A stretch of 64,000 bases of DNA from Escherichia coli (GTDB lineage Bacteria; Pseudomonadota; Gammaproteobacteria; Enterobacterales; Enterobacteriaceae), in NCBI RefSeq assembly GCF_002854065.1, contig NZ_CP024147.1. The stretch is one strand, 5' to 3'. The position numbers and the translations under genes are program-made. This document shows positions 21,006 to 53,313 of this stretch, in pieces. The stretch's first letter is position 1. The number at the start of each line of letters is the position of its first letter. The notes beneath the pieces are model-generated. The model was not told where the DNA came from, searched no databases, and saw only the letters and a program-made list of their open reading frames with translations.

Positions 21006-21165
21006 CCAGAAAAAAGAGGGTAGCAGCGTTAACTGCTACCCTCGAAGATTGTTACCCAGCGTATTGCGGTTTTCAGGCCCGATGGGGAACGACCATCAGG
21101 CGTATAGTCTGTCCGTGCTACGTAACAATTGAGAGGGCTGGAATTTCCGCCCCTGGTTCTTGTAA
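21006..21165 (-). ncRNA. sroC: Probable SroC sRNA (gltI 3'UTR / gltI-gltJ spacer fragment), ending in an intrinsic terminator
   Basis: 169-bp non-coding spacer between gltI stop and gltJ start, where E. coli SroC is described; contains hairpin gagggtagcag-cgttaa-ctgctaccctc (21016-21043) followed on the minus strand by TTTTTTCT. Confidence 0.45.
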
Positions 21166-22074
21166 TTAGTTCAGTGCCTTGTCATTCGGTTCTTTGAACA
21201 GTGCTTTCATTTCGTCTGACAGTTCGAAATTCATGTTCAGGTTTTTCGGCGGAATTGGATTTTTGAACCATTTATCAAACCATTTTTCCGCTTCACCGGA
21301 GGTCTGCACCTGAGCGATGGTGTCATCCATCAGCTTTTTGAACTGCGGATCGTCTTTACGCAACATGCAACCGTAGGCTTCCTGAGACTGCGGCTTGCCG
21401 ACGATATCCCAGTTGTCTGGTTTCTTCGCTTTCGCACGTTCACCGGCCAGCAGGGCATCATCCATCATAAAGGCAACGGCACGACCGCTTTCCAGGGTGC
21501 GGAAAGAGTCACCGTGATCTTTGGCGCTGATGATGCGCATATTCATTTTTTGCTCTTCATTCAGTTTGTTGAGCAAAACTTCAGAGGTAGTGCCGGAAGT
21601 GACGACTACGGCTTTGCCTTTCAGGTCGGCAAAATCTTTGATATCGCCGCCCTTTTTGGTCAACAGGCGCGTACCGACCACGAAAATAGTGTCAGAGAAA
21701 GCCGCCTGTTTTTGGCGTTCGACGTTGTTGGTGGTAGAACCACATTCAAAATCGAAAGTGCCGTTTTGCAGAAGAGGAATACGGTTTTGTGAGGTGATCG
21801 GAATCAGTTTCACCTGCAAGTCCGGTTTGTTGAGTTTCTTTTTCACTGCTTCAACAATGGCGTTGGAGTAATCCTGCGAATAACCCACCACTTTTTGCTG
21901 ATTGTCGTAATAAGAGAAAGGTACTGAAGATTCACGGTGACCGACGACAATCACGCCGTTTTTGGCGATTTTGTCCAGCGTACTGCCCGCTGCCGGGGCG
22001 GCGTCATCTGCCTGTGCCAGTCCTGCGGAAAGCGCAAGGGCCAGGATTGCTGTGGCAGGTTTACGTAATTGCAT
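21166..22074 (-). CDS. gltI: Glutamate/aspartate periplasmic binding protein
   Basis: Start set at MQLRKPATAILALALSAGLAQA (signal peptide; 302 aa); the ORF track extends 25 codons upstream. Confidence 0.9.
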   Translation of the reverse strand: MQLRKPATAILALALSAGLAQADDAAPAAGSTLDKIAKNGVIVVGHRESSVPFSYYDNQQKVVGYSQDYSNAIVEAVKKKLNKPDLQVKLIPITSQNRIPLLQNGTFDFECGSTTNNVERQKQAAFSDTIFVVGTRLLTKKGGDIKDFADLKGKAVVVTSGTTSEVLLNKLNEEQKMNMRIISAKDHGDSFRTLESGRAVAFMMDDALLAGERAKAKKPDNWDIVGKPQSQEAYGCMLRKDDPQFKKLMDDTIAQVQTSGEAEKWFDKWFKNPIPPKNLNMNFELSDEMKALFKEPNDKALN

Positions 22075-26658: not shown

Positions 26659-28083
26659 TTACGGCTGATAATAACCCACACCAAGGTCGTTTTCTTTGCG
26701 AGTACGGGCAATCACCGATTCCGGTGTTTCTGCCACGCGCAGACCCATTTCATCTTCAGTTCGCACCACTTTACCGCGCAGAGAGTTCGGGTAGACGTCG
26801 GTAATTTCTACATCGACGAATTTACCGATCATATCCGGTGTGCCCTCGAAGTTGACCACACGATTATTTTCGGTACGTCCGGAAAGCTCCATGATGCTCT
26901 TACGTGAAGTCCCTTCTACCAGAATACGCTGGGTGGTGCCGAGCATCCGACGGCTCCATGCCATCGCTTGCTGATTAATGCGCTCTTGCAGAATATACAG
27001 ACGCTGCTTCTTCTCTTCTTCCGGAACATCATCAACCATATCGGCGGCTGGTGTACCCGGACGTGCAGAGAAGATAAAGCTGTAGCTCATGTCGAAATTG
27101 ACGTCGGCAATCAGCTTCATCGTTTTCTCGAAGTCTTCGGTGGTTTCGCCAGGGAAGCCAACGATGAAATCAGAACTGATCTGAATATCCGGACGCGCCG
27201 CACGCAGTTTACGGATGATCGCTTTGTACTCCAGCGCCGTATGGGTACGTCCCATCAGGTTCAGAATACGATCGGAACCGCTCTGTACCGGCAGATGCAG
27301 GAAGCTCACCAGCTCCGGCGTGTCGCGGTACACTTCGATGATATCGTCGGTGAATTCGATCGGATGGCTGGTGGTAAAGCGAATACGATCGATCCCGTCG
27401 ATCGCTGCAACCAGACGCAGCAGATCGGCAAACGATCCGGTGGTGCCGTCGTAGTTTTCACCACGCCAGGCGTTCACGTTCTGACCGAGCAGGTTGACTT
27501 CACGCACGCCCTGAGCCGCAAGCTGGGCAATCTCAAACAGAATATCGTCGGACGGACGGCTTACCTCTTCACCACGGGTGTAAGGCACCACGCAGTAGGT
27601 GCAATATTTATTGCAGCCTTCCATGATGGAGACAAACGCGGTCGGCCCTTCGGCGCGCGGTTCCGGCAGACGGTCAAACTTCTCGATTTCCGGGAAGCTG
27701 ATATCTACCACCGGGCTGCGGTCGCCGCGCACGGAGTTGATCATCTCCGGCAGACGATGCAGCGTTTGCGGCCCAAAAATAATATCGACATAGTGGGCGC
27801 GCTGGCGAATGTGCTCGCCTTCTTGCGATGCCACGCAGCCGCCGACGCCGATAATCAGGTCTGGATTCTTCTCTTTTAACAGTTTCCAGCGGCCTAACTG
27901 ATGGAAGACTTTTTCCTGAGCCTTCTCGCGGATTGAGCAGGTGTTCAGCAGCAGCACATCCGCTTCTTCCGCCACGTCGGTCAGTTGATAGCCGTGGGTG
28001 GCATCCAGCAGATCGGCCATCTTCGATGAATCGTACTCGTTCATCTGACAGCCCCAGGTTTTAATATGGAGTTTTTTGGTCAT
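26659..28083 (-). CDS. miaB: tRNA-i6A37 methylthiotransferase
   Basis: 474-aa ORF with radical-SAM CxxxCxxC (CNKYCTYC) and N-terminal MTTase cysteines. Confidence 0.95.
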
Positions 28084-29557: not shown

Positions 29558-29632
29558 TGGCTGGGGTACGAGGATTCGAACCTCGGAATGCCGGAATCAG
29601 AATCCGGTGCCTTACCGCTTGGCGATACCCCA
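29558..29632 (-). tRNA. glnX: tRNA-Gln (anticodon CUG)
   Basis: 75-nt reverse-strand cloverleaf sequence, anticodon loop UUCUGAUU, ends CCA. Confidence 0.95.
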
Positions 29633-29669
29633 ACTGGGTGCACTTACAAGGTAAGCGTCTTGAATAAAT

Positions 29670-29744
29670 TGGCTGGGGTACGAGGATTCGAACCTCGGAA
29701 TGCCGGAATCAGAATCCGGTGCCTTACCGCTTGGCGATACCCCA
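29670..29744 (-). tRNA. glnV: tRNA-Gln (anticodon CUG)
   Basis: Exact repeat of the glnX sequence. Confidence 0.95.
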
Positions 29745-29791
29745 ACAAATTGGTTTTGAATTTGCCGAACATATTCGACACATTCAGAATT

Positions 29792-29868
29792 TGGTGGCTA
29801 CGACGGGATTCGAACCTGTGACCCCATCATTATGAGTGATGTGCTCTAACCAACTGAGCTACGTAGCC
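29792..29868 (-). tRNA. metU: tRNA-Met elongator (anticodon CAU)
   Basis: 77-nt sequence whose reverse complement reads GGCUACGUAGCUCAGUUGGUUAGAGCACAUCACUCAUAAUGAUGGGGUCACAGGUUCGAAUCCCGUCGUAGCCACCA. Confidence 0.95.
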
Positions 29869-29883
29869 AGATTGTTTCTTCGA

Positions 29884-29958
29884 TGGCTGGGGTACCTGGA
29901 TTCGAACCAGGGAATGCCGGTATCAAAAACCGGTGCCTTACCGCTTGGCGATACCCCA
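29884..29958 (-). tRNA. glnW: tRNA-Gln (anticodon UUG)
   Basis: 75-nt Gln tRNA with anticodon loop UUUUGAU; same acceptor stem as glnX/glnV. Confidence 0.95.
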
Positions 29959-29992
29959 ATAACCGGGCGGTGAACCGCTTACTCGAAGAAGA

Positions 29993-30067
29993 TGGCTGGG
30001 GTACCTGGATTCGAACCAGGGAATGCCGGTATCAAAAACCGGTGCCTTACCGCTTGGCGATACCCCA
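29993..30067 (-). tRNA. glnU: tRNA-Gln (anticodon UUG)
   Basis: Repeat of the glnW sequence. Confidence 0.95.
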
Positions 30068-30090
30068 TCCGTACAACGCTTTCTGGTGAA

Positions 30091-30175
30091 TGGTGCGGGA
30101 GGCGAGACTTGAACTCGCACACCTTGCGGCGCCAGAACCTAAATCTGGTGCGTCTACCAATTTCGCCACTCCCGC
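30091..30175 (-). tRNA. leuW: tRNA-Leu (anticodon UAG), class II tRNA with long variable arm
   Basis: 85-nt sequence; reverse complement starts GCGGGAGUGGCGAAAUUGG and ends ...CCCGCACCA. Confidence 0.93.
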
Positions 30176-30183
30176 AAAAAAGA

Positions 30184-30260
30184 TGGTGGCTACGACGGGA
30201 TTCGAACCTGTGACCCCATCATTATGAGTGATGTGCTCTAACCAACTGAGCTACGTAGCC
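30184..30260 (-). tRNA. metT: tRNA-Met elongator (anticodon CAU)
   Basis: Identical to the metU sequence; first gene of the operon. Confidence 0.95.
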
Positions 30261-46611: not shown

Positions 46612-48252
46612 ATGGCAATCCACAATCGTGCAGGCCAACCTGCACAACAGAGTGATTTGATTAACGTCGCCCAACTGACGGCGCAATATTATGTACTGAA
46701 ACCAGAAGCAGGGAATGCGGAGCACGCGGTGAAATTCGGTACTTCCGGTCACCGTGGCAGTGCAGCGCGCCACAGCTTTAACGAGCCGCACATTCTGGCG
46801 ATCGCTCAGGCAATTGCTGAAGAACGTGCGAAAAACGGCATCACTGGCCCTTGCTATGTGGGTAAAGATACTCACGCCCTGTCCGAACCTGCATTTATTT
46901 CCGTTCTGGAAGTGCTGGCAGCGAACGGCGTAGATGTTATTGTGCAGGAAAACAATGGCTTCACTCCGACGCCTGCTGTTTCCAATGCCATCCTGGTTCA
47001 CAATAAAAAAGGTGGCCCGCTGGCAGACGGTATCGTGATTACACCGTCCCATAACCCGCCGGAAGATGGTGGAATCAAATACAATCCGCCAAATGGTGGC
47101 CCGGCAGATACCAACGTCACTAAAGTGGTGGAAGATCGTGCCAACGCACTGCTGGCCGATGGCCTGAAAGGCGTGAAGCGTATCTCCCTCGACGAAGCGA
47201 TGGCATCCGGTCATGTGAAAGAGCAGGATCTGGTGCAGCCGTTCGTGGAAGGGCTGGCCGATATCGTTGATATGGCGGCGATTCAGAAAGCGGGCCTGAC
47301 GCTTGGCGTTGATCCGCTGGGCGGTTCCGGTATCGAATACTGGAAGCGTATTGGCGAGTATTACAACCTCAACCTGACTATCGTTAACGATCAGGTCGAT
47401 CAAACCTTCCGCTTTATGCACCTTGATAAAGACGGCGCGATCCGTATGGACTGCTCCTCTGAGTGTGCGATGGCGGGCCTGCTGGCACTGCGTGATAAGT
47501 TCGATCTGGCGTTTGCTAACGACCCGGATTATGACCGTCACGGTATCGTCACTCCGGCAGGTTTGATGAATCCGAACCACTACCTGGCGGTAGCGATCAA
47601 TTACCTGTTCCAGCATCGTCCGCAGTGGGGCAAAGATGTTGCCGTTGGGAAAACGCTGGTTTCATCTGCGATGATCGACCGTGTGGTCAACGACTTGGGC
47701 CGTAAACTGGTAGAAGTCCCGGTAGGTTTCAAATGGTTTGTTGATGGTCTGTTCGACGGCAGCTTCGGCTTTGGCGGCGAAGAGAGCGCAGGGGCTTCCT
47801 TCCTGCGTTTCGACGGCACGCCGTGGTCCACCGACAAAGACGGCATCATCATGTGTCTGCTGGCGGCGGAAATCACCGCTGTCACCGGTAAGAACCCGCA
47901 GGAACACTACAACGAACTGGCAAAACGCTTTGGTGCGCCGAGCTACAACCGTTTGCAGGCAGCTGCGACTTCCGCACAAAAAGCGGCGCTGTCTAAGCTG
48001 TCTCCGGAAATGGTGAGCGCCAGCACCCTGGCAGGTGACCCTATCACCGCGCGCCTGACTGCTGCTCCGGGCAACGGTGCTTCTATTGGCGGTCTGAAAG
48101 TGATGACTGACAACGGCTGGTTCGCCGCGCGTCCGTCAGGCACGGAAGACGCATATAAGATCTACTGCGAAAGCTTCCTCGGTGAAGAACATCGCAAGCA
48201 GATTGAGAAAGAAGCGGTTGAGATTGTTAGCGAAGTTCTGAAAAACGCGTAA
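46612..48252 (+). CDS. pgm: Phosphoglucomutase
   Basis: Phosphoserine loop [11 protein letters not shown]; start set at [10 protein letters not shown] (546 aa). Confidence 0.94.
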
Positions 48253-48263
48253 ACACATTAAAT

Positions 48264-48297
48264 AAAAAAAGGGCGGTCGCAAGATCGCCCTTTTTTA
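48264..48297. terminator. Bidirectional intrinsic terminator between pgm and potE
   Basis: A7 - gggcggtcgc-aa-gatcgccc - T6 structure. Confidence 0.75.
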
Positions 48298-48307
48298 CTT
48301 TGCTTTT

Positions 48308-49627
48308 TTAACCGTGTTTATTTTTCAGTTCAAAGCGTGGTGATACCAGACCATACAGTGTCCAACCAAGGAAGGTCACGATGGAACCGTACAGCATGGC
48401 TTCTTCCCCGGATGAGTACAGCGCATAAAAGCTGTACATCGCGCCAACAAAAGCAACAAAGTTTGCAACTTTCGCTTTTGAGGGGGGCACATTAGCGACC
48501 TTCTGAATAATGACTAATGCCGCCATTGACAGAATATACGGAATGATATTGGTCACCACGGCCAGGTTAACCAGCACGTTGAACTGACTGTTTAGCGACG
48601 GGCTAATCGTCATCAGCGCCAACCCGCTCTGGATAATCACAATGGTCAACATTCCCTGCACCGGTGCATCCACTTTGGTTACACGGGAGAAAATTTTAGG
48701 GAAGTAGCCTTCATCAGATGAAGATTTAAACACCTGGGCAATGGTGAACTGCCAGCCAAGCAGCGAACCGCAGCAGGACATCACCATCAGCGCCATAATG
48801 ACTTTACCCACTTCCGGCGTGAACATCTGCGCGAAGGCCAGACCAAATGGTGCCGTTGAATTTGCCAGCTCCATATTTGGCACAATCCCGGCAATCACGT
48901 TGGTGGAGACGATATAAATCACCGCCGCACCTAACGTACCGCCGAGTACCGCGATTGGCACATTACGTTCCGGGTTTTCCACTACATCAGTATTTGCACA
49001 CGCAGACTCCAGACCAAGAAAAGCCCACAGCGTCATAGCGATGGAAGAACCTACCGCACTGAAGAACGGTGCATGATGCGGATTCCAGGAATCAACGTAC
49101 AGCGTCGGGCTAAACCAGAACCAGCCAATAATGCACAGACCGACGACCGGAATAATGACTCCCCACACAGTAATGCTACTGATTTGCCCGGTAATGCGCG
49201 CACCACCAAAGTTAGCCACGGTACAAATCCACAGCACCCCGATGGTCGCAAGACCAATCTGCACTGGCGACAAACTCGCGCCGAGCAGTTCGGTGCCGTA
49301 ACCAACCGCCGAAATAGCAATCGCGACGTTAGCAATCAGCAGTGAGACGCCGTAGGTATAGTTCGCCATAAAGTTACCGGATTTACCGAAAGCATACTCG
49401 GCATAACCGCCCATACCTCCTGATTTACGGCTGAACATACCGCATTTTGCGAATGCCCATGCCAGTGCCATTGAGCCTACGGCTGTCACCAGCCAGGAGA
49501 TAATTGAGATTGTCCCAACTTCGGCAAGCTTTGTCGGCAGCATGATGATACCGGAGCCCATCATGTTGACCATCGTCAGTATGGTTAACTGAACGACGCC
49601 CATTTTGTTCGATTTAGCCTGACTCAT
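48308..49627 (-). CDS. potE: Putrescine-ornithine antiporter (APC family)
   Basis: 439-aa 12-TM ORF overlapping the speF stop. Confidence 0.93.
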   Translation of the reverse strand: MSQAKSNKMGVVQLTILTMVNMMGSGIIMLPTKLAEVGTISIISWLVTAVGSMALAWAFAKCGMFSRKSGGMGGYAEYAFGKSGNFMANYTYGVSLLIANVAIAISAVGYGTELLGASLSPVQIGLATIGVLWICTVANFGGARITGQISSITVWGVIIPVVGLCIIGWFWFSPTLYVDSWNPHHAPFFSAVGSSIAMTLWAFLGLESACANTDVVENPERNVPIAVLGGTLGAAVIYIVSTNVIAGIVPNMELANSTAPFGLAFAQMFTPEVGKVIMALMVMSCCGSLLGWQFTIAQVFKSSSDEGYFPKIFSRVTKVDAPVQGMLTIVIIQSGLALMTISPSLNSQFNVLVNLAVVTNIIPYILSMAALVIIQKVANVPPSKAKVANFVAFVGAMYSFYALYSSGEEAMLYGSIVTFLGWTLYGLVSPRFELKNKHG

Positions 49628-51822
49628 AATTTTTCCCCTTTCAGCAGGGTGCTTTGCGCATCACGAGGCTTGATGACATAGCACCAAACTTGCTTACGAC
49701 CATCATGTTCTTCGATATAGACACCCTGCAGCTCCGGTGCAAAACCTGGCAGCAGGTTGATCCCTTCTTCCAGAGCGCTGAAGTAACGCAGAACAGCACC
49801 ACCCCAGATTTCACCCGGAACAACACACAGCACACCCGGAGGATAAGGAAGCGCACCTTCGGCAGCGATACGGCCTTCAGCATCCGGCAGACGAACCAGT
49901 TCCACTTCACCGCGTAAATAGGCGTAGTTGGCTTCTTGCGGATTCATGCTGACGCGTGGGAAGTGCTCCTTACGGAACATCTCTTTTTGCAGTTGTTTCA
50001 CGTTGTGGCGGGCATACAAATCATGCATTTCCTGACACAACTGACGCAGGGTATAACCGGCGTAGCGCTCTTCATGCTGTTTGTAGATGGAAGGTAGCAC
50101 TTCTGCTAATGGCGCGTCGGACTCAAGCAGTTTTTCGAAGCGTACCAGCAGGGCAACAAGTTGCTGAAGTTTGGCCATATCTTCTGCCGGAGTCAGCAGG
50201 AAGAGGATGGAGTTAAGATCGCATTTTTCCGGCACTACGCCATTTTCGCGCAGGAAGTTAGCAAGAATCGTCGCGGGTACACCGAACGCTTCATATTCGC
50301 CGTTACGTGCATCAATACCTGGGGTTGTCAGCAACAGTTTGCATGGATCGACAAAGTATTGATTCTCTGCATAGCCTTCAAAAGAATGCCAGTGTTCCCC
50401 TGGTACAAACTGGAAGAAGCGCAGATCAACCGCAATTTGCGCTGTTTCATACGACTGCCAGGGTTTACCATCCACCAGTTCAGGTATGAACGGACGAATA
50501 TGCTGACAGTTATCGAGGATCAGTTTGCGGGCATTAATGCCATTTACCACACAATCCATCCACATATTACGACCGCTGACACCTTCATGCATTTTGGCGT
50601 TGATATCCAGTGCGGCAAACAGCGGATAGAACGGGCTGGTGGAGGCATGCATCATAAAGGCGTTGTTCATGCGTTTGTGCGGTACATAACGCTGTTGCCC
50701 TTTGATGTGGCTGTCTTTTTTATGGATTTGTGAAGTTTGAGAAAAACCAGCCTGCTGTTTATGTACGGATTGCGTAACCAGAATACCCGGATCGTTCTCA
50801 TTAAGATCCAGCAACAGCGGCGAACAGTCAGCCATCATCGGAATAAACTGTTCATAGCCGACCCATGCGGAATCAAACAGGATGTAGTCACACAGATGAC
50901 CAATTTTATCCACCACCTGGCGGGCGTTATAAATCGTACCGTCGTAGGTGCCTAGCTGAATCACAGCGAGGCGGAACGGACGCGCCTCTTTTGCCCGTTG
51001 CGGTGCAACTTCTGTAATCAGTTCACGCAGATAACTTTCTTCGAAGCAGTGCGCATCAATACCACCGATAAAACCATACGGGTTACGTGCTGTTTCCAGA
51101 TAAACCGGTGTTGCACCAGCCTGTAGCAAGGCCCCGTGGTGGTTAGACTTATGGTTATTGCGGTCAAATAGCACCAGATCACCCGGTGTCAGCAGGGCGT
51201 TTAAAACCACTTTGTTAGAAGATGAAGTACCATTTAAAACGAAGTAGGTTTTATCGGCATTAAACACTTTTGCTGCATGTTGCTGTGCAATGCATGGCGC
51301 GCCTTCGTGAATCAGCAGATCGCCCATCGCGACGTCGGCGTTGCACAAGTCGGCACGGAACAGCGCCTCACCAAAGTATTCCACAAACTGATTCCCCGCC
51401 GGATGGCGACGGAAAAATTCGCCGCCCTGATGACCGGGGCAGTCAAATGCGCTGTTGCCCTGATTGACATAATCGACCAGTGCGCGAAAGAAAGGTGGGC
51501 GCAGTTGAGTTTCATAATGGCTGGCAGCGGTTTCTAACTGACGACCATAAAATTCTTTGCGTGCTTCTCCATGTTCGAAGACACCAGAAATACGTGAAAG
51601 ATATTCTGCTGGTATACGTTCTTCATTTTCCGTTGCAATAAAAACAGGAATGTCATAGCCAGTAGCGTCTATTTCATCGAGTTTTCCACGTTCAACATCA
51701 CTGACTGATAAAATAATGGCGGCAACGTCAATATAATTACTTTCGTCTATATTCACGCATGCACGATGAGTGGAAAAACAATCCGGGCAAGAACGACTAA
51801 CGGCAATTTTTAATTCTGACAT
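49624..51822 (-). CDS. speF: Inducible ornithine decarboxylase (PLP-dependent, fold I)
   Basis: About 732-aa ORF of the Orn/Lys/Arg decarboxylase family. Start ambiguous between ATG at 51831 (MNKMSELK) and 51822 (MSELKIAV). Confidence 0.92.
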   Translation of the reverse strand: MSELKIAVSRSCPDCFSTHRACVNIDESNYIDVAAIILSVSDVERGKLDEIDATGYDIPVFIATENEERIPAEYLSRISGVFEHGEARKEFYGRQLETAASHYETQLRPPFFRALVDYVNQGNSAFDCPGHQGGEFFRRHPAGNQFVEYFGEALFRADLCNADVAMGDLLIHEGAPCIAQQHAAKVFNADKTYFVLNGTSSSNKVVLNALLTPGDLVLFDRNNHKSNHHGALLQAGATPVYLETARNPYGFIGGIDAHCFEESYLRELITEVAPQRAKEARPFRLAVIQLGTYDGTIYNARQVVDKIGHLCDYILFDSAWVGYEQFIPMMADCSPLLLDLNENDPGILVTQSVHKQQAGFSQTSQIHKKDSHIKGQQRYVPHKRMNNAFMMHASTSPFYPLFAALDINAKMHEGVSGRNMWMDCVVNGINARKLILDNCQHIRPFIPELVDGKPWQSYETAQIAVDLRFFQFVPGEHWHSFEGYAENQYFVDPCKLLLTTPGIDARNGEYEAFGVPATILANFLRENGVVPEKCDLNSILFLLTPAEDMAKLQQLVALLVRFEKLLESDAPLAEVLPSIYKQHEERYAGYTLRQLCQEMHDLYARHNVKQLQKEMFRKEHFPRVSMNPQEANYAYLRGEVELVRLPDAEGRIAAEGALPYPPGVLCVVPGEIWGGAVLRYFSALEEGINLLPGFAPELQGVYIEEHDGRKQVWCYVIKPRDAQSTLLKGEKL

Positions 51823-51976
51823 TTTGTTCATCTCTTTATTTCAGGTAATAGCAGGTCCTCAATTTCTCAAAGGAGAAATCGATCACGCCGGAAAAAAGCA
51901 AAGCTCCACCGCTGATAAATAAATCAGTAGTTTGCTTTTTGCAGATGCAATAACCCAGACCAGCCCGGTAACTGGC

Positions 51977-52150
51977 TATACTCGTCATACTTCAAGTTGC
52001 ATGTGCTGCGTCTGCGTTCGCTCACCCCAGTCACTTACTCATGTAAGCTCCTGGGGATTCACTCGCTTGTCGCCTTCCTGCAACTCGAATTATTTAGAGT
52101 ATATACTCGTCATACTTCAAGTTGCATATGCTGCGACTCGAATTATGTAG
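51977..52150. repeat. ERIC/IRU-type repeat plus a truncated tandem second copy
   Basis: Core cgctcaccccagtcacttact / atgtaagctcctggggattcac (52019-52062) matches the ERIC consensus; 34-bp segment tatactcgtcatacttcaagttgcatRtgctgcg occurs twice (51977-52010 and 52103-52136), the second joined directly to the element's right-end motif actcgaattat. Confidence 0.7.
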
Positions 52151-52256
52151 AGTTTAAAAGGGTTAGCAGTATATGAGCACCGAGGGATACAGGTATTAAC
52201 CTGTAATGCTTAAAGTCAGGGAGACCTGTACGCTGGGGTGCCCTTTAGTCAGAAGA

Positions 52257-52361
52257 CTAGCGGGCATTAAAGAAATGAAAGTCAAAACTATTACGATGGG
52301 CAAACTTCATGATATGGGTTGTCCGCCTTATATGAGGCATTAAGCGGTTATTATTTTCCAT
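52257..52361 (-). CDS. speFL: speF leader arrest peptide SpeFL (34 codons)
   Basis: Minus-strand ORF MENNNRLMPHIRRTTHIMKFAHRNSFDFHFFNAR, upstream of speF; matches the described ornithine-sensing arrest peptide. Confidence 0.8.
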   Translation of the reverse strand: MENNNRLMPHIRRTTHIMKFAHRNSFDFHFFNAR

Positions 52362-52635
52362 TTACCTTTACCTCTTGCTGTGTCAGTTGAAGGTAGAGTT
52401 ATTCTATCCATGAAATGGCTATAATCTGTGAAGAAGATCAACAAAAAACGATCATACCCCAGATAATAAATCATTAATTATGAATAGCGCCATACTAGAT
52501 GCTGTTTTGTTACTTAAATGTTGTAATTTCGTGTTTTATATTTGCGTTAAGAAATTAAACCTGCCAAATAATAATATTTGGCGCAGGTTTAATAATAAAT
52601 TAATCACTATTTAGGCGAATTTATTGAATAAAAAT

Positions 52636-53313
52636 TCAAAGCATAAACCGATAACCAATCCCAGTTTCAGTAATAAAATGGCGAGGCCGGGCCGGGTCTT
52701 GCTCCAGTTTTTGTCGCAGATGCCCCATATAAATACGCAAATAATGACTGTGTTCGACCGCGTTTGGCCCCCACACCTGGTTAAGGAGTTGGCGCTGGGT
52801 GAGCACTTTCCCGGCATTATTCAGCAGCACCGCCAGCAGGCGGAATTCAATCGGCGTGAGATGCACCTCTTCCTCACCCCGGTGAATCACGCGGGCGGCT
52901 AAATCGACGGTAACATCGGAGAATTTCACCAGCGGATCGGGCGCGGTGGTGACAGAGTGGCGGCGTAATGCGACGCGCAGACGGGCCTGCAATTCGCCAA
53001 TGCCAAACGGCTTACTCAGATAATCATCCGCTCCGGCATCCAGCGCGGCGATTTTGTCGCTCTCTTCGCTGCGTGCGGAAAGCACAATCACCGGCACCGC
53101 GCTCCACTGGCGCAGGTCGCGGATAAACTCAATCCCATCACCATCGGGCAGGCCGAGATCGAGAATAATCAAATCTGGCTTACGGGTTGCCGCTTCCAGC
53201 AAGCCGCGTTGCAGCGTTTCGGCCTCAAAGACGCGCATCCCGTCGCCCTCCAGCGCCGTGCGCAGAAAGCGACGAATAGCCTGTTCATCTTCAACAATCA
53301 GAACGTTTGTCAC
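52636..53313 (-). CDS. kdpE: Response regulator KdpE (OmpR family)
   Basis: 225-aa ORF with receiver domain and winged-helix output; overlaps kdpD stop. Confidence 0.94.
   Translation of the reverse strand: MTNVLIVEDEQAIRRFLRTALEGDGMRVFEAETLQRGLLEAATRKPDLIILDLGLPDGDGIEFIRDLRQWSAVPVIVLSARSEESDKIAALDAGADDYLSKPFGIGELQARLRVALRRHSVTTAPDPLVKFSDVTVDLAARVIHRGEEEVHLTPIEFRLLAVLLNNAGKVLTQRQLLNQVWGPNAVEHSHYLRIYMGHLRQKLEQDPARPRHFITETGIGYRFML

Follow-up and report, generated by a model that had tools for sequence, protein, structure and literature searches.

The 64,000-nucleotide (nt) stretch of Escherichia coli DNA analysed here (contig NZ_CP024147.1; the window) carries, on its minus strand, the speF-potE operon and its leader, in which two abutting repeats of the enterobacterial repetitive intergenic consensus (ERIC) type are found. 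The operon consists of speF (49624-51822 from the RefSeq start; the longest open reading frame, ORF, reaches 51831) and potE (48308-49627). Upstream of both lies the speFL leader ORF (52257-52361, minus strand; 34 codons in the ORF listing), whose 34-amino-acid product (MENNNRLMPHIRRTTHIMKFAHRNSFDFHFFNAR) contains PHIRRTTHIM and with it the HIRRTTH ornithine-sensor motif and a rare AGG CGG pair of arginine codons; a HIRRXXH-type motif with consecutive rare Arg codons, placed upstream of speF-potE, marks speFL as an arrest-peptide leader upstream ORF (uORF). The 539-nt region 51823-52361 is 100% identical to that of strain SCU-316, where RefSeq annotates both speFL and speF, the former under the label 'leader peptide SpeFL' (WP_001312672.1). 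Further upstream are kdpE (52636-53313, minus strand) and kdpD. The leader spacer, which separates the stop codon of speFL from the ATG of speF (51823-52256, minus strand), measures 434 nt; K-12 has 257 nt there, and most E. coli have 310. The preliminary description of this DNA had located it correctly and had given its length, wrongly, as 435 bp.

The first repeat is a full-length ERIC of 127 bp including the flanking TA (51977-52103, minus strand; in the mRNA sense TATACTCTAAATAATTCGAGTTGCAGGAAGGCG...GTGAATCCCCAGGAGCTTACATGAGTAAGTGACTGGGGTGAGCG...GACGAGTATA). A repeat search found its termini to be a 25-nt inverted repeat, whose arms (51977-52001 and 52079-52103) are 80% complementary and separated by 77 nt. 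The core holds an exact match to the ERIC1R primer sequence (52041-52062) and, next to it, a match with one mismatch to ERIC2 (52019-52040); the chance expectation of such primer-site matches in shuffled sequences was 0, and the two primer sequences, which co-occur in 233 papers, are confirmed by that co-occurrence. A covariance model (CM) made with 11 ERICs drawn from five genera (Escherichia, Kluyvera, Citrobacter, Serratia and Vibrio) scored the element at 133 bits on the minus strand and at 28 bits on the plus strand, which makes its orientation unambiguous. With nhmmer the element was matched at E=2e-37, and homologues were recovered in Kluyvera, Citrobacter, Serratia, Vibrio cholerae and V. 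metoecus (E 1e-14 to 1e-37). Dispersed E. coli copies are 98-99% identical over 128 nt and lie at loci without an annotated feature; megablast placed the sequence at 27,184 positions in 5,425 genomes (median 5 per genome), and primer-site and CM scans found this copy alone in the window. The array reads, in the mRNA sense, ...CCCTTT-TA-(short)-TA-(full)-TA-GCCAG..., and TA flanks are a reported hallmark of ERIC as a MITE (miniature inverted-repeat transposable element), according to PMC3184786. MITE-like TA ends are accompanied by empty and filled sites: the site is empty in K-12, and empty/filled pairs occur in Citrobacter amalonaticus and in Kluyvera. All the family traits looked for (palindrome, core, dispersed copies, homologues and TA-bounded insertion) are present, and 51977-52103 is a genuine, canonical ERIC. 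The preliminary description, which had proposed an ERIC-type palindromic repeat in this leader and had named a core failing to align with ERIC as grounds for doubt, is borne out by the terminal inverted repeats, the primer sites and the 133-bit CM match; the core does align.

ERICs, also called IRUs, are classed as MITEs (Sharples & Lloyd 1990; Hulton et al. 1991; Wilson & Sharp 2006). The elements of the window do not differ from the known ones, with which they share the 127-bp imperfect palindrome, the ERIC-PCR core, long terminal inverted repeats and TA flanks, an extragenic but transcribed location, near-identical multiple copies, internally deleted short forms and presence or absence among strains. 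It is their context that differs, namely an abutting pair of short and full copies in a SpeFL leader, with an allelic series of five states. Rfam has no ERIC family, and a scan of the whole window at gathering thresholds gave no match in the array region. Two Rfam models did align below threshold: V_AS5, a Vibrio antisense RNA (AS5), runs end to end with the full copy (46.3 bits against a gathering threshold of 96), and positions 159-216 of the Salmonella model isrH are colinear with the short copy (26.4 bits against 45). Membership of either family was rejected; the alignments only show that both models have ERIC-like sequence embedded in them.

The second repeat is a short-form ERIC of 55 bp including the flanking TA (52102-52156, minus strand), in which both ERIC termini are retained and the internal ~72 nt are missing, so that the left ~35 nt are joined to the right ~20 nt. 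It was delimited by two direct repeats with the full copy, of 37 nt (95%; 51977-52013 against 52102-52138) and of 26 nt (88%; 52078-52103 against 52131-52156). The two copies stand head to tail in the same orientation and abut, the TA at 52102-52103 being common to both. A second partial copy, with the left ~34 bp fused to the right-end motif, had been described beforehand and is what the direct repeats delimit. The form, with termini kept and core absent, is not confined to the speF leader: another short-form ERIC, sharing its internal junction (…TTCGAGTCGCAG[T/C]ACATGCAAC…), lies between yafP and the rtcB/prfH pseudogenes in E. coli 15.03CC (L129, 1199-1257), and ~780 genomes, besides those with a copy in the speF leader, match at least 80% of it. 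E. albertii and the divergent strain E69 carry an element of ~52 nt with ERIC termini, much diverged, at the same leader site; their global CM matches, which include a large internal deletion, are weak (E 0.08-0.3). The few polymorphisms in the short-copy hairpin among E. coli alleles were read by eye and are not compensatory.

Both repeats are inside the transcribed speFL-speF leader, as had been stated, and their position relative to the known regulatory signals was compared with published work. Ornithine-dependent ribosome arrest and Rho attenuation are known for this leader from K-12 and Salmonella; their sequence correlates in the window are a hairpin over the speFL stop and a tract richer in C than in G. 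In E. coli K-12 the rut site overlaps speFL, the pause hairpin includes the speFL stop codon and Rho terminates just downstream (bioRxiv 10.1101/604074). In Salmonella transcription starts 31 nt upstream of the uORF AUG, and Rho termination occurs at +157, ~21 nt past the uORF stop; mRNA nt ~99-125 (speFL) pair with the speF ribosome-binding region in a helix validated by compensatory mutations, and the 'ring-like' region between the strands of this long-range helix (nt 175-449) influences RNase G-dependent decay (PMC6386406). The distance from the speFL stop to the start of the repeats is 101 nt in the window, which puts the array beyond the ornithine/Rho decision module and inside the counterpart of the Salmonella ring. 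By sliding-window composition, a rut-like zone of C over G (C/G 1.2-2.25) covers 52153-52352 of the minus strand and ends at the ERIC array, the ERICs themselves being richer in G than in C in the mRNA sense (C/G about 0.6).

Folding was compared across three alleles, which also formed the first alignment: K-12 MG1655 (no repeat), strain 122 (short copy only) and the window (short and full copies). The minimum free energy (MFE) structures of all three contain a hairpin over the speFL stop (GCCCGCUAGUCUUCUGACUAAAGGGC; 52241-52266, minus strand), probably equivalent to the RNA polymerase pause hairpin of the literature, after which Rho terminates, a role taken from bioRxiv 10.1101/604074 and PMC6386406. 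A long-range helix is also predicted, between speFL nt 72-94 (52268-52290, minus strand) and the speF Shine-Dalgarno and AUG region (-15 to +12; 51811-51837, minus strand). Its pairs are identical in the window allele and the short-only allele, and it is shorter and register-shifted in K-12 (speFL nt 79-92 with speF -11 to +5); the predicted mean pair probability is 0.82-0.84 across the three alleles (0.82 in K-12). In the 603-nt leader each ERIC folds as an autonomous hairpin branching from a multiloop, in both the MFE and the centroid structure. A local helix UAACCC/GGGUUA (51950-52165, minus strand), likewise predicted in both structures, encloses the two ERIC hairpins together with a GCCAGUUACCGGGCUGG hairpin; the homologous helix of K-12 is predicted to enclose the GCCAGUUACCGGGCUGG hairpin only. 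The 196-nt array taken alone reaches -72.2 kcal/mol (z = -7.95) with both ERIC hairpins formed, and the hairpin predicted for the full copy is more stable in the sense direction (-53.7 kcal/mol) than in the antisense direction (-44.0). On the mRNA strand the array showed no motif resembling a promoter or a terminator. Compared with the characterised leaders of K-12 and Salmonella (speFL/orf34-speF), the window shares an intact speFL, HIRRTTH, the rare Arg-Arg codons, the stop-codon hairpin, the C-rich tract and the predicted helix between speFL and the ribosome-binding site (RBS); it differs from the K-12 leader (257 nt, no repeat) in its 434 nt and in the two ERIC hairpins placed centrally.

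The leader alleles were counted in 5,426 complete E. coli genomes, 5,044 of which have a speFL leader. (The remaining 382 gave no match to the leader even in distant mode; presumably their speF-potE locus is lacking or disrupted.) The repeat-free state corresponds to the K-12-type haplotype, found in 1,704 genomes and always without repeats, and supplies the comparison with repeat-free strains that had been proposed at the outset. The commonest allele is the short-only state, with a 310-nt spacer (~3,305 of the 5,044; strain 122 is an example, and it also occurs in O157:H7 genomes). A junction-specific query found 34 genomes with more than the short copy. Thirty-two of them are short+full like the window (junction identities of 100, 98.6, 97.9 and 97.2%), a rare state of ~0.6% of genomes. 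NCTC9112 has a 381-nt leader with a single full ERIC, whose left arm carries the diagnostic base of the short copy, and DCE7 has a 487-nt leader with short, short' and full copies, short' having the left arm of the full type and the right arm of the short type, the signature of unequal crossover; both recombinants are what exchange between misaligned repeat arms would be expected to yield. Five states are observed in all (none, short, full, short+full and short+short+full, with leaders of 257, 310, 381, 434 and 487 nt), and in every window-type allele examined SpeFL is intact and identical (WP_001312672.1) regardless of the repeats present. In E. coli the array is thus naturally polymorphic and unstable through recombination. 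Presence of the repeat in all relatives with normal induction had been named beforehand as a refuting observation, and it is not what is seen: K-12, in which induction has been characterised, is without both copies.

The repeats also coincide with a region of high divergence. A block of ~2 kb (window ~50870-52860), comprising the 5' third of speF, the leader, speFL, the promoter and the 3' end of kdpE, is 76-92% identical to K-12 (L002) outside the repeat indels, the regulatory part being 15-24% diverged, and is flanked by sequence 97-100% identical to K-12. Within the initial 600 nt of speF, identity is 87.3% between the window and K-12 and 88.5% between the window and E. albertii, a similar distance. 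Two deeply diverged speF regulatory haplotypes exist in E. coli, at roughly 34% and 66%, with ERICs on the window type only; the split points to ancient polymorphism or introgression.

From these observations we propose that the leader tolerates the array as a MITE passenger, in a part where its structure is permissive, with little regulatory effect, and put the probability of this reading at about 0.68. Functional near-neutrality is inferred from the position of the repeats, from the predicted structure and from the observation that SpeFL stays invariant while five repeat states coexist. What the leader holds would be a two-unit ERIC MITE array in the transcribed 5' leader of the speF-potE operon, downstream of speFL, the rut site, the pause hairpin and the termination point and between the strands of the RBS-masking helix; the ERIC hairpins would branch off a multiloop in the central variable part of the leader, matching the 'ring-like' region of Salmonella. 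The consequence would most likely be none, or a slight change in leader length or mRNA half-life, and any effect would act through leader length or mRNA turnover. A change in ornithine sensing or in Rho loading by the array is unlikely, and an effect on speF mRNA stability is possible. The preliminary description had suggested that the repeat could alter the access of Rho to the leader; in that form the suggestion is unlikely, as the repeats lie ~100 nt past the stop, beyond the rut site and the termination point, and the pause hairpin and the long-range helix are predicted to be unchanged.

Several points weigh against near-neutrality. The published work on regulation was all done on K-12, with its 257-nt, ERIC-free leader, or on Salmonella, and MFE prediction ignores co-transcriptional kinetics; an additional 125-178 nt of structured untranslated RNA could shift the time window available to Rho or to the long-range helix. 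The ring of Salmonella is not functionally inert, its deletion Δ170-313 (Ben-Zvi et al.) having stabilised the mRNA against arginine-triggered decay (PMC6386406). Yersinia ERICs are reported, in the summary of De Gregorio et al. 2005 given in PMC3184786, to affect the stability of flanking mRNAs in an orientation-dependent manner through RNase E; as summarised there, they resemble the window copies in being co-transcribed and folding into RNA hairpins, and differ in lying between or after coding regions, whereas the window ERICs are in a 5' leader between an arrest-peptide uORF and its target. Finally, the repeated colonisation of the leader in the same orientation in several genera exceeds what neutral, random targeting would predict.

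This last point comes from a survey with a degenerate DNA pattern for the SpeFL core (HIRRTxHIM) on genome contigs, which gave at least 120 loci and covered species other than S. enterica subsp. enterica, S. bongori and E. fergusonii. The baseline leader of Enterobacteriaceae is 242-257 nt and, among the matches listed, ERICs are present in longer leaders. In Kluyvera ascorbata the element occupies the homologue of the E. coli site, and in Kluyvera genomosp. 1 it sits at another TA, ~40 nt further upstream. An ERIC is also found in the loop of a CAGGC/GCCTG hairpin in Citrobacter amalonaticus S646 and Citrobacter sp. On2M, the site being empty in other C. amalonaticus. Where K. ascorbata has its full ERIC, K. 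sichuanensis (L114) has a 14-nt palindrome (ATACCCTAGGGTAT, ~82-95 nt past the speFL stop), which appears to be an ERIC footprint consisting of the two termini only, and K. georgiana and K. cryocrescens have nothing. Among the matches listed, all leader ERICs of other genera have the orientation of the window copies, and entry into the leader was independent in Kluyvera (twice), in Citrobacter and, possibly, in Salmonella. The mRNA-sense hairpin was the more stable one in every other comparison made (-54.1/-36.7, -59.2/-37.9, -40.6/-33.9 and -37.2/-35.2 kcal/mol, sense/antisense). In 77 listed enterobacterial loci (696 kb), 4 of the 7 full-length matches to an ERIC hidden Markov model (HMM) were in the leader, which makes up ~3% of the sequence; this enrichment is indicative only, the HMM having been trained on leader copies and being biased to that extent. 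A different kind of long leader was seen in Citrobacter freundii M-21 (L043), where 375 nt without ERIC and with little similarity to other leaders follow a typical speFL; the N-terminus of its SpeF is only 59% identical to that of the window, and a different decarboxylase lineage may possibly stand behind the same uORF.

The Salmonella lineage offers a possible relic. The leaders of S. enterica subsp. arizonae and diarizonae (378-379 nt) contain an insert of ~122 nt (L055 2571-2698 and L110 12341-12468) that MAFFT places exactly in the Citrobacter ERIC gap and that is predicted to fold end to end as a hairpin. Its left end is ERIC-like, with a match score reached by 2/1000 and 8/1000 shuffles. 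The diarizonae insert was the top full-length CM match at the exact coordinates, but at 11.8 bits and E = 1.4; the arizonae leader gave no ERIC CM match, and the ERIC HMM found nothing in the Salmonella leader at E<=1 in 1 Mb. The evidence that the insert is a decayed ERIC is statistically weak and no more than suggestive. Were it one, it would correspond to about nt 194-319 of the S. Typhimurium mRNA, within the Δ170-313 deletion. A wider proposition can be framed on this basis, in which the central speFL-speF leader would be a preferred, orientation-specific landing pad for ERICs across Enterobacteriaceae, with hairpins co-opted into an mRNA-decay module, the Salmonella ring segment a decayed ERIC and the E. 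coli allelic series tuning speF; we regard it as improbable.

The same material bears on the principal rival to a tolerated passenger, namely that the ERIC hairpins are a selected regulatory module, tuning the decay of speF mRNA as substrates of RNases E, G or III or as barriers to 3'-exonucleases, or tightening attenuation by a longer tract usable by Rho; in outline this is the idea of the preliminary description. The independent insertions in one orientation fall in the same ~60-nt zone of the leader (Escherichia short and full copies, K. ascorbata, Kluyvera genomosp. 1, the C. amalonaticus group and possibly Salmonella), the orientation taken is always that of the more stable hairpin, and deletions in the Salmonella ring alter mRNA stability; the excess of G over C in the mRNA sense, by which the C-rich rut-like zone is not extended, is also counted on this side, as is the share of HMM matches falling in the leader. 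Against selection for a module stand the third of E. coli genomes that are repeat-free, including K-12 with its working ornithine induction, the presence and absence within C. amalonaticus, Kluyvera and E. coli with no sign of fixation, the rarity (0.6%) and easy loss of the full copy, and K. sichuanensis, which keeps a 14-nt footprint only. The leader enrichment is biased by the training of the HMM, and a preference for TA in exposed loops could give the same pattern in the absence of selection. A selected module seems to us unlikely, and a tolerated passenger is retained as the preferred reading.

A second question is how the pair arose. The full ERIC may have been duplicated in tandem, or the short+full state may be ancestral, one copy having lost its interior, and the short-only state may have arisen repeatedly by recombination between the 34-37-nt direct repeats, deleting a unit of 125 bp. 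Such a history would explain why short+full occurs on at least two flank backgrounds with differing short copies (CTACAT/CATATG against CTAAAT/CATAGG) and a full copy identical throughout, why short-only alleles with flanks matching the short+full backgrounds are common, and why the short-only copy of ST131, which equals the full copy minus the internal 72 nt except for its first base, carries the right-arm variant of the full copy (CGCAGCACATG), as a right-arm crossover in a short+full array would yield. Unequal exchange at the leader array is proved by the full-only and short+short'+full recombinants, and, with flanks ~1.3% diverged, it is not improbable that the full copy shows no SNP over its 127 nt from one background to another (1.7 expected, by our own estimate). 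Against it, the short element stands alone at the leader site in E. albertii and E69; its presence at a second locus implies that it moves on its own or arises recurrently through GCAG microhomology, with no need of a local tandem; and the 125-bp difference between alleles is exactly one element plus the duplicated TA, as for a fresh insertion beside a short copy. A comparison of SNPs in four short+full and four short-only alleles fits both an ancestral short+full state and a history in which a full ERIC entered the TA next to a short copy already in place. We hold an origin by tandem duplication, or from an ancestral short+full state, with internal deletion of one copy to be a real possibility that falls short of even odds. 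The preliminary description had called the second copy a deleted tandem derivative, and this can be kept for its structure (a full ERIC minus the internal ~72 nt), while the secondary status that it implies is not supported: the short copy is the majority state, has a diverged counterpart in E. albertii and E69 and occurs in the same form at yafP-rtcB/prfH, which argue against its being simply a local by-product of the full copy. That the second copy is a chance similarity, or an artefact of assembly or duplication, has nothing in its favour except that chance can produce short repeat families of two copies; the direct repeats (37 nt at 95% and 26 nt at 88%) and the short copy standing alone in about 3,300 genomes speak against it, and an assembly artefact is ruled out by the same tandem in 32 independent complete genomes.

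Other features of the window were noted in passing. A 44-codon ORF (52340-52474, minus strand) overlaps the start of speFL and appears in RefSeq genomes as 'hypothetical protein' WP_001299172.1; judged by the Salmonella start site, most of it is upstream of where speFL transcription is likely to begin, and the call, made over the promoter, is probably spurious. A peptide resembling its product is fused in frame to speFL in Citrobacter braakii. The genes pgm and potE are nearly adjacent in the window (47054-48298 / 48268), where K-12 has ybfP, ybfG and ybfI between them (L002 1245-2907), and the K-12 ybfI pseudogene matches the 3' end of the window kdpE at 89.7%. The sroC sRNA (168 bits; 21008-21170, minus strand) and a cluster of seven tRNA genes (29561-30260, minus strand) are ordinary and unrelated to the repeat array.

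ERICs, their short forms and their presence or absence from strain to strain are already known. No mention of an ERIC in the speF leader, nor of the tandem in a SpeFL leader, the five-state allelic series or the recurrence across genera, was found in the literature searched, which did not extend to two key ERIC papers (Wilson & Sharp 2006 and De Gregorio 2005); the O157 copy may already be catalogued. By itself the array is an ordinary repeat polymorphism, and its value is in its context, within a well-understood, metabolite-sensing arrest-peptide attenuator. The mechanistic work has been done on the repeat-free K-12 allele, which is found in about one third of E. coli, and about two thirds of the species carry a diverged leader with at least one ERIC hairpin. 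The natural, isogenic-like series of leaders would permit a test of how the length and structure of the spacer between a uORF and its target matter for Rho attenuation, RBS masking and mRNA decay, and the recurrent insertions in the same orientation may serve as a compact test case for whether ERIC targeting is directed by structure and whether selection acts on transcribed ERICs as RNA.

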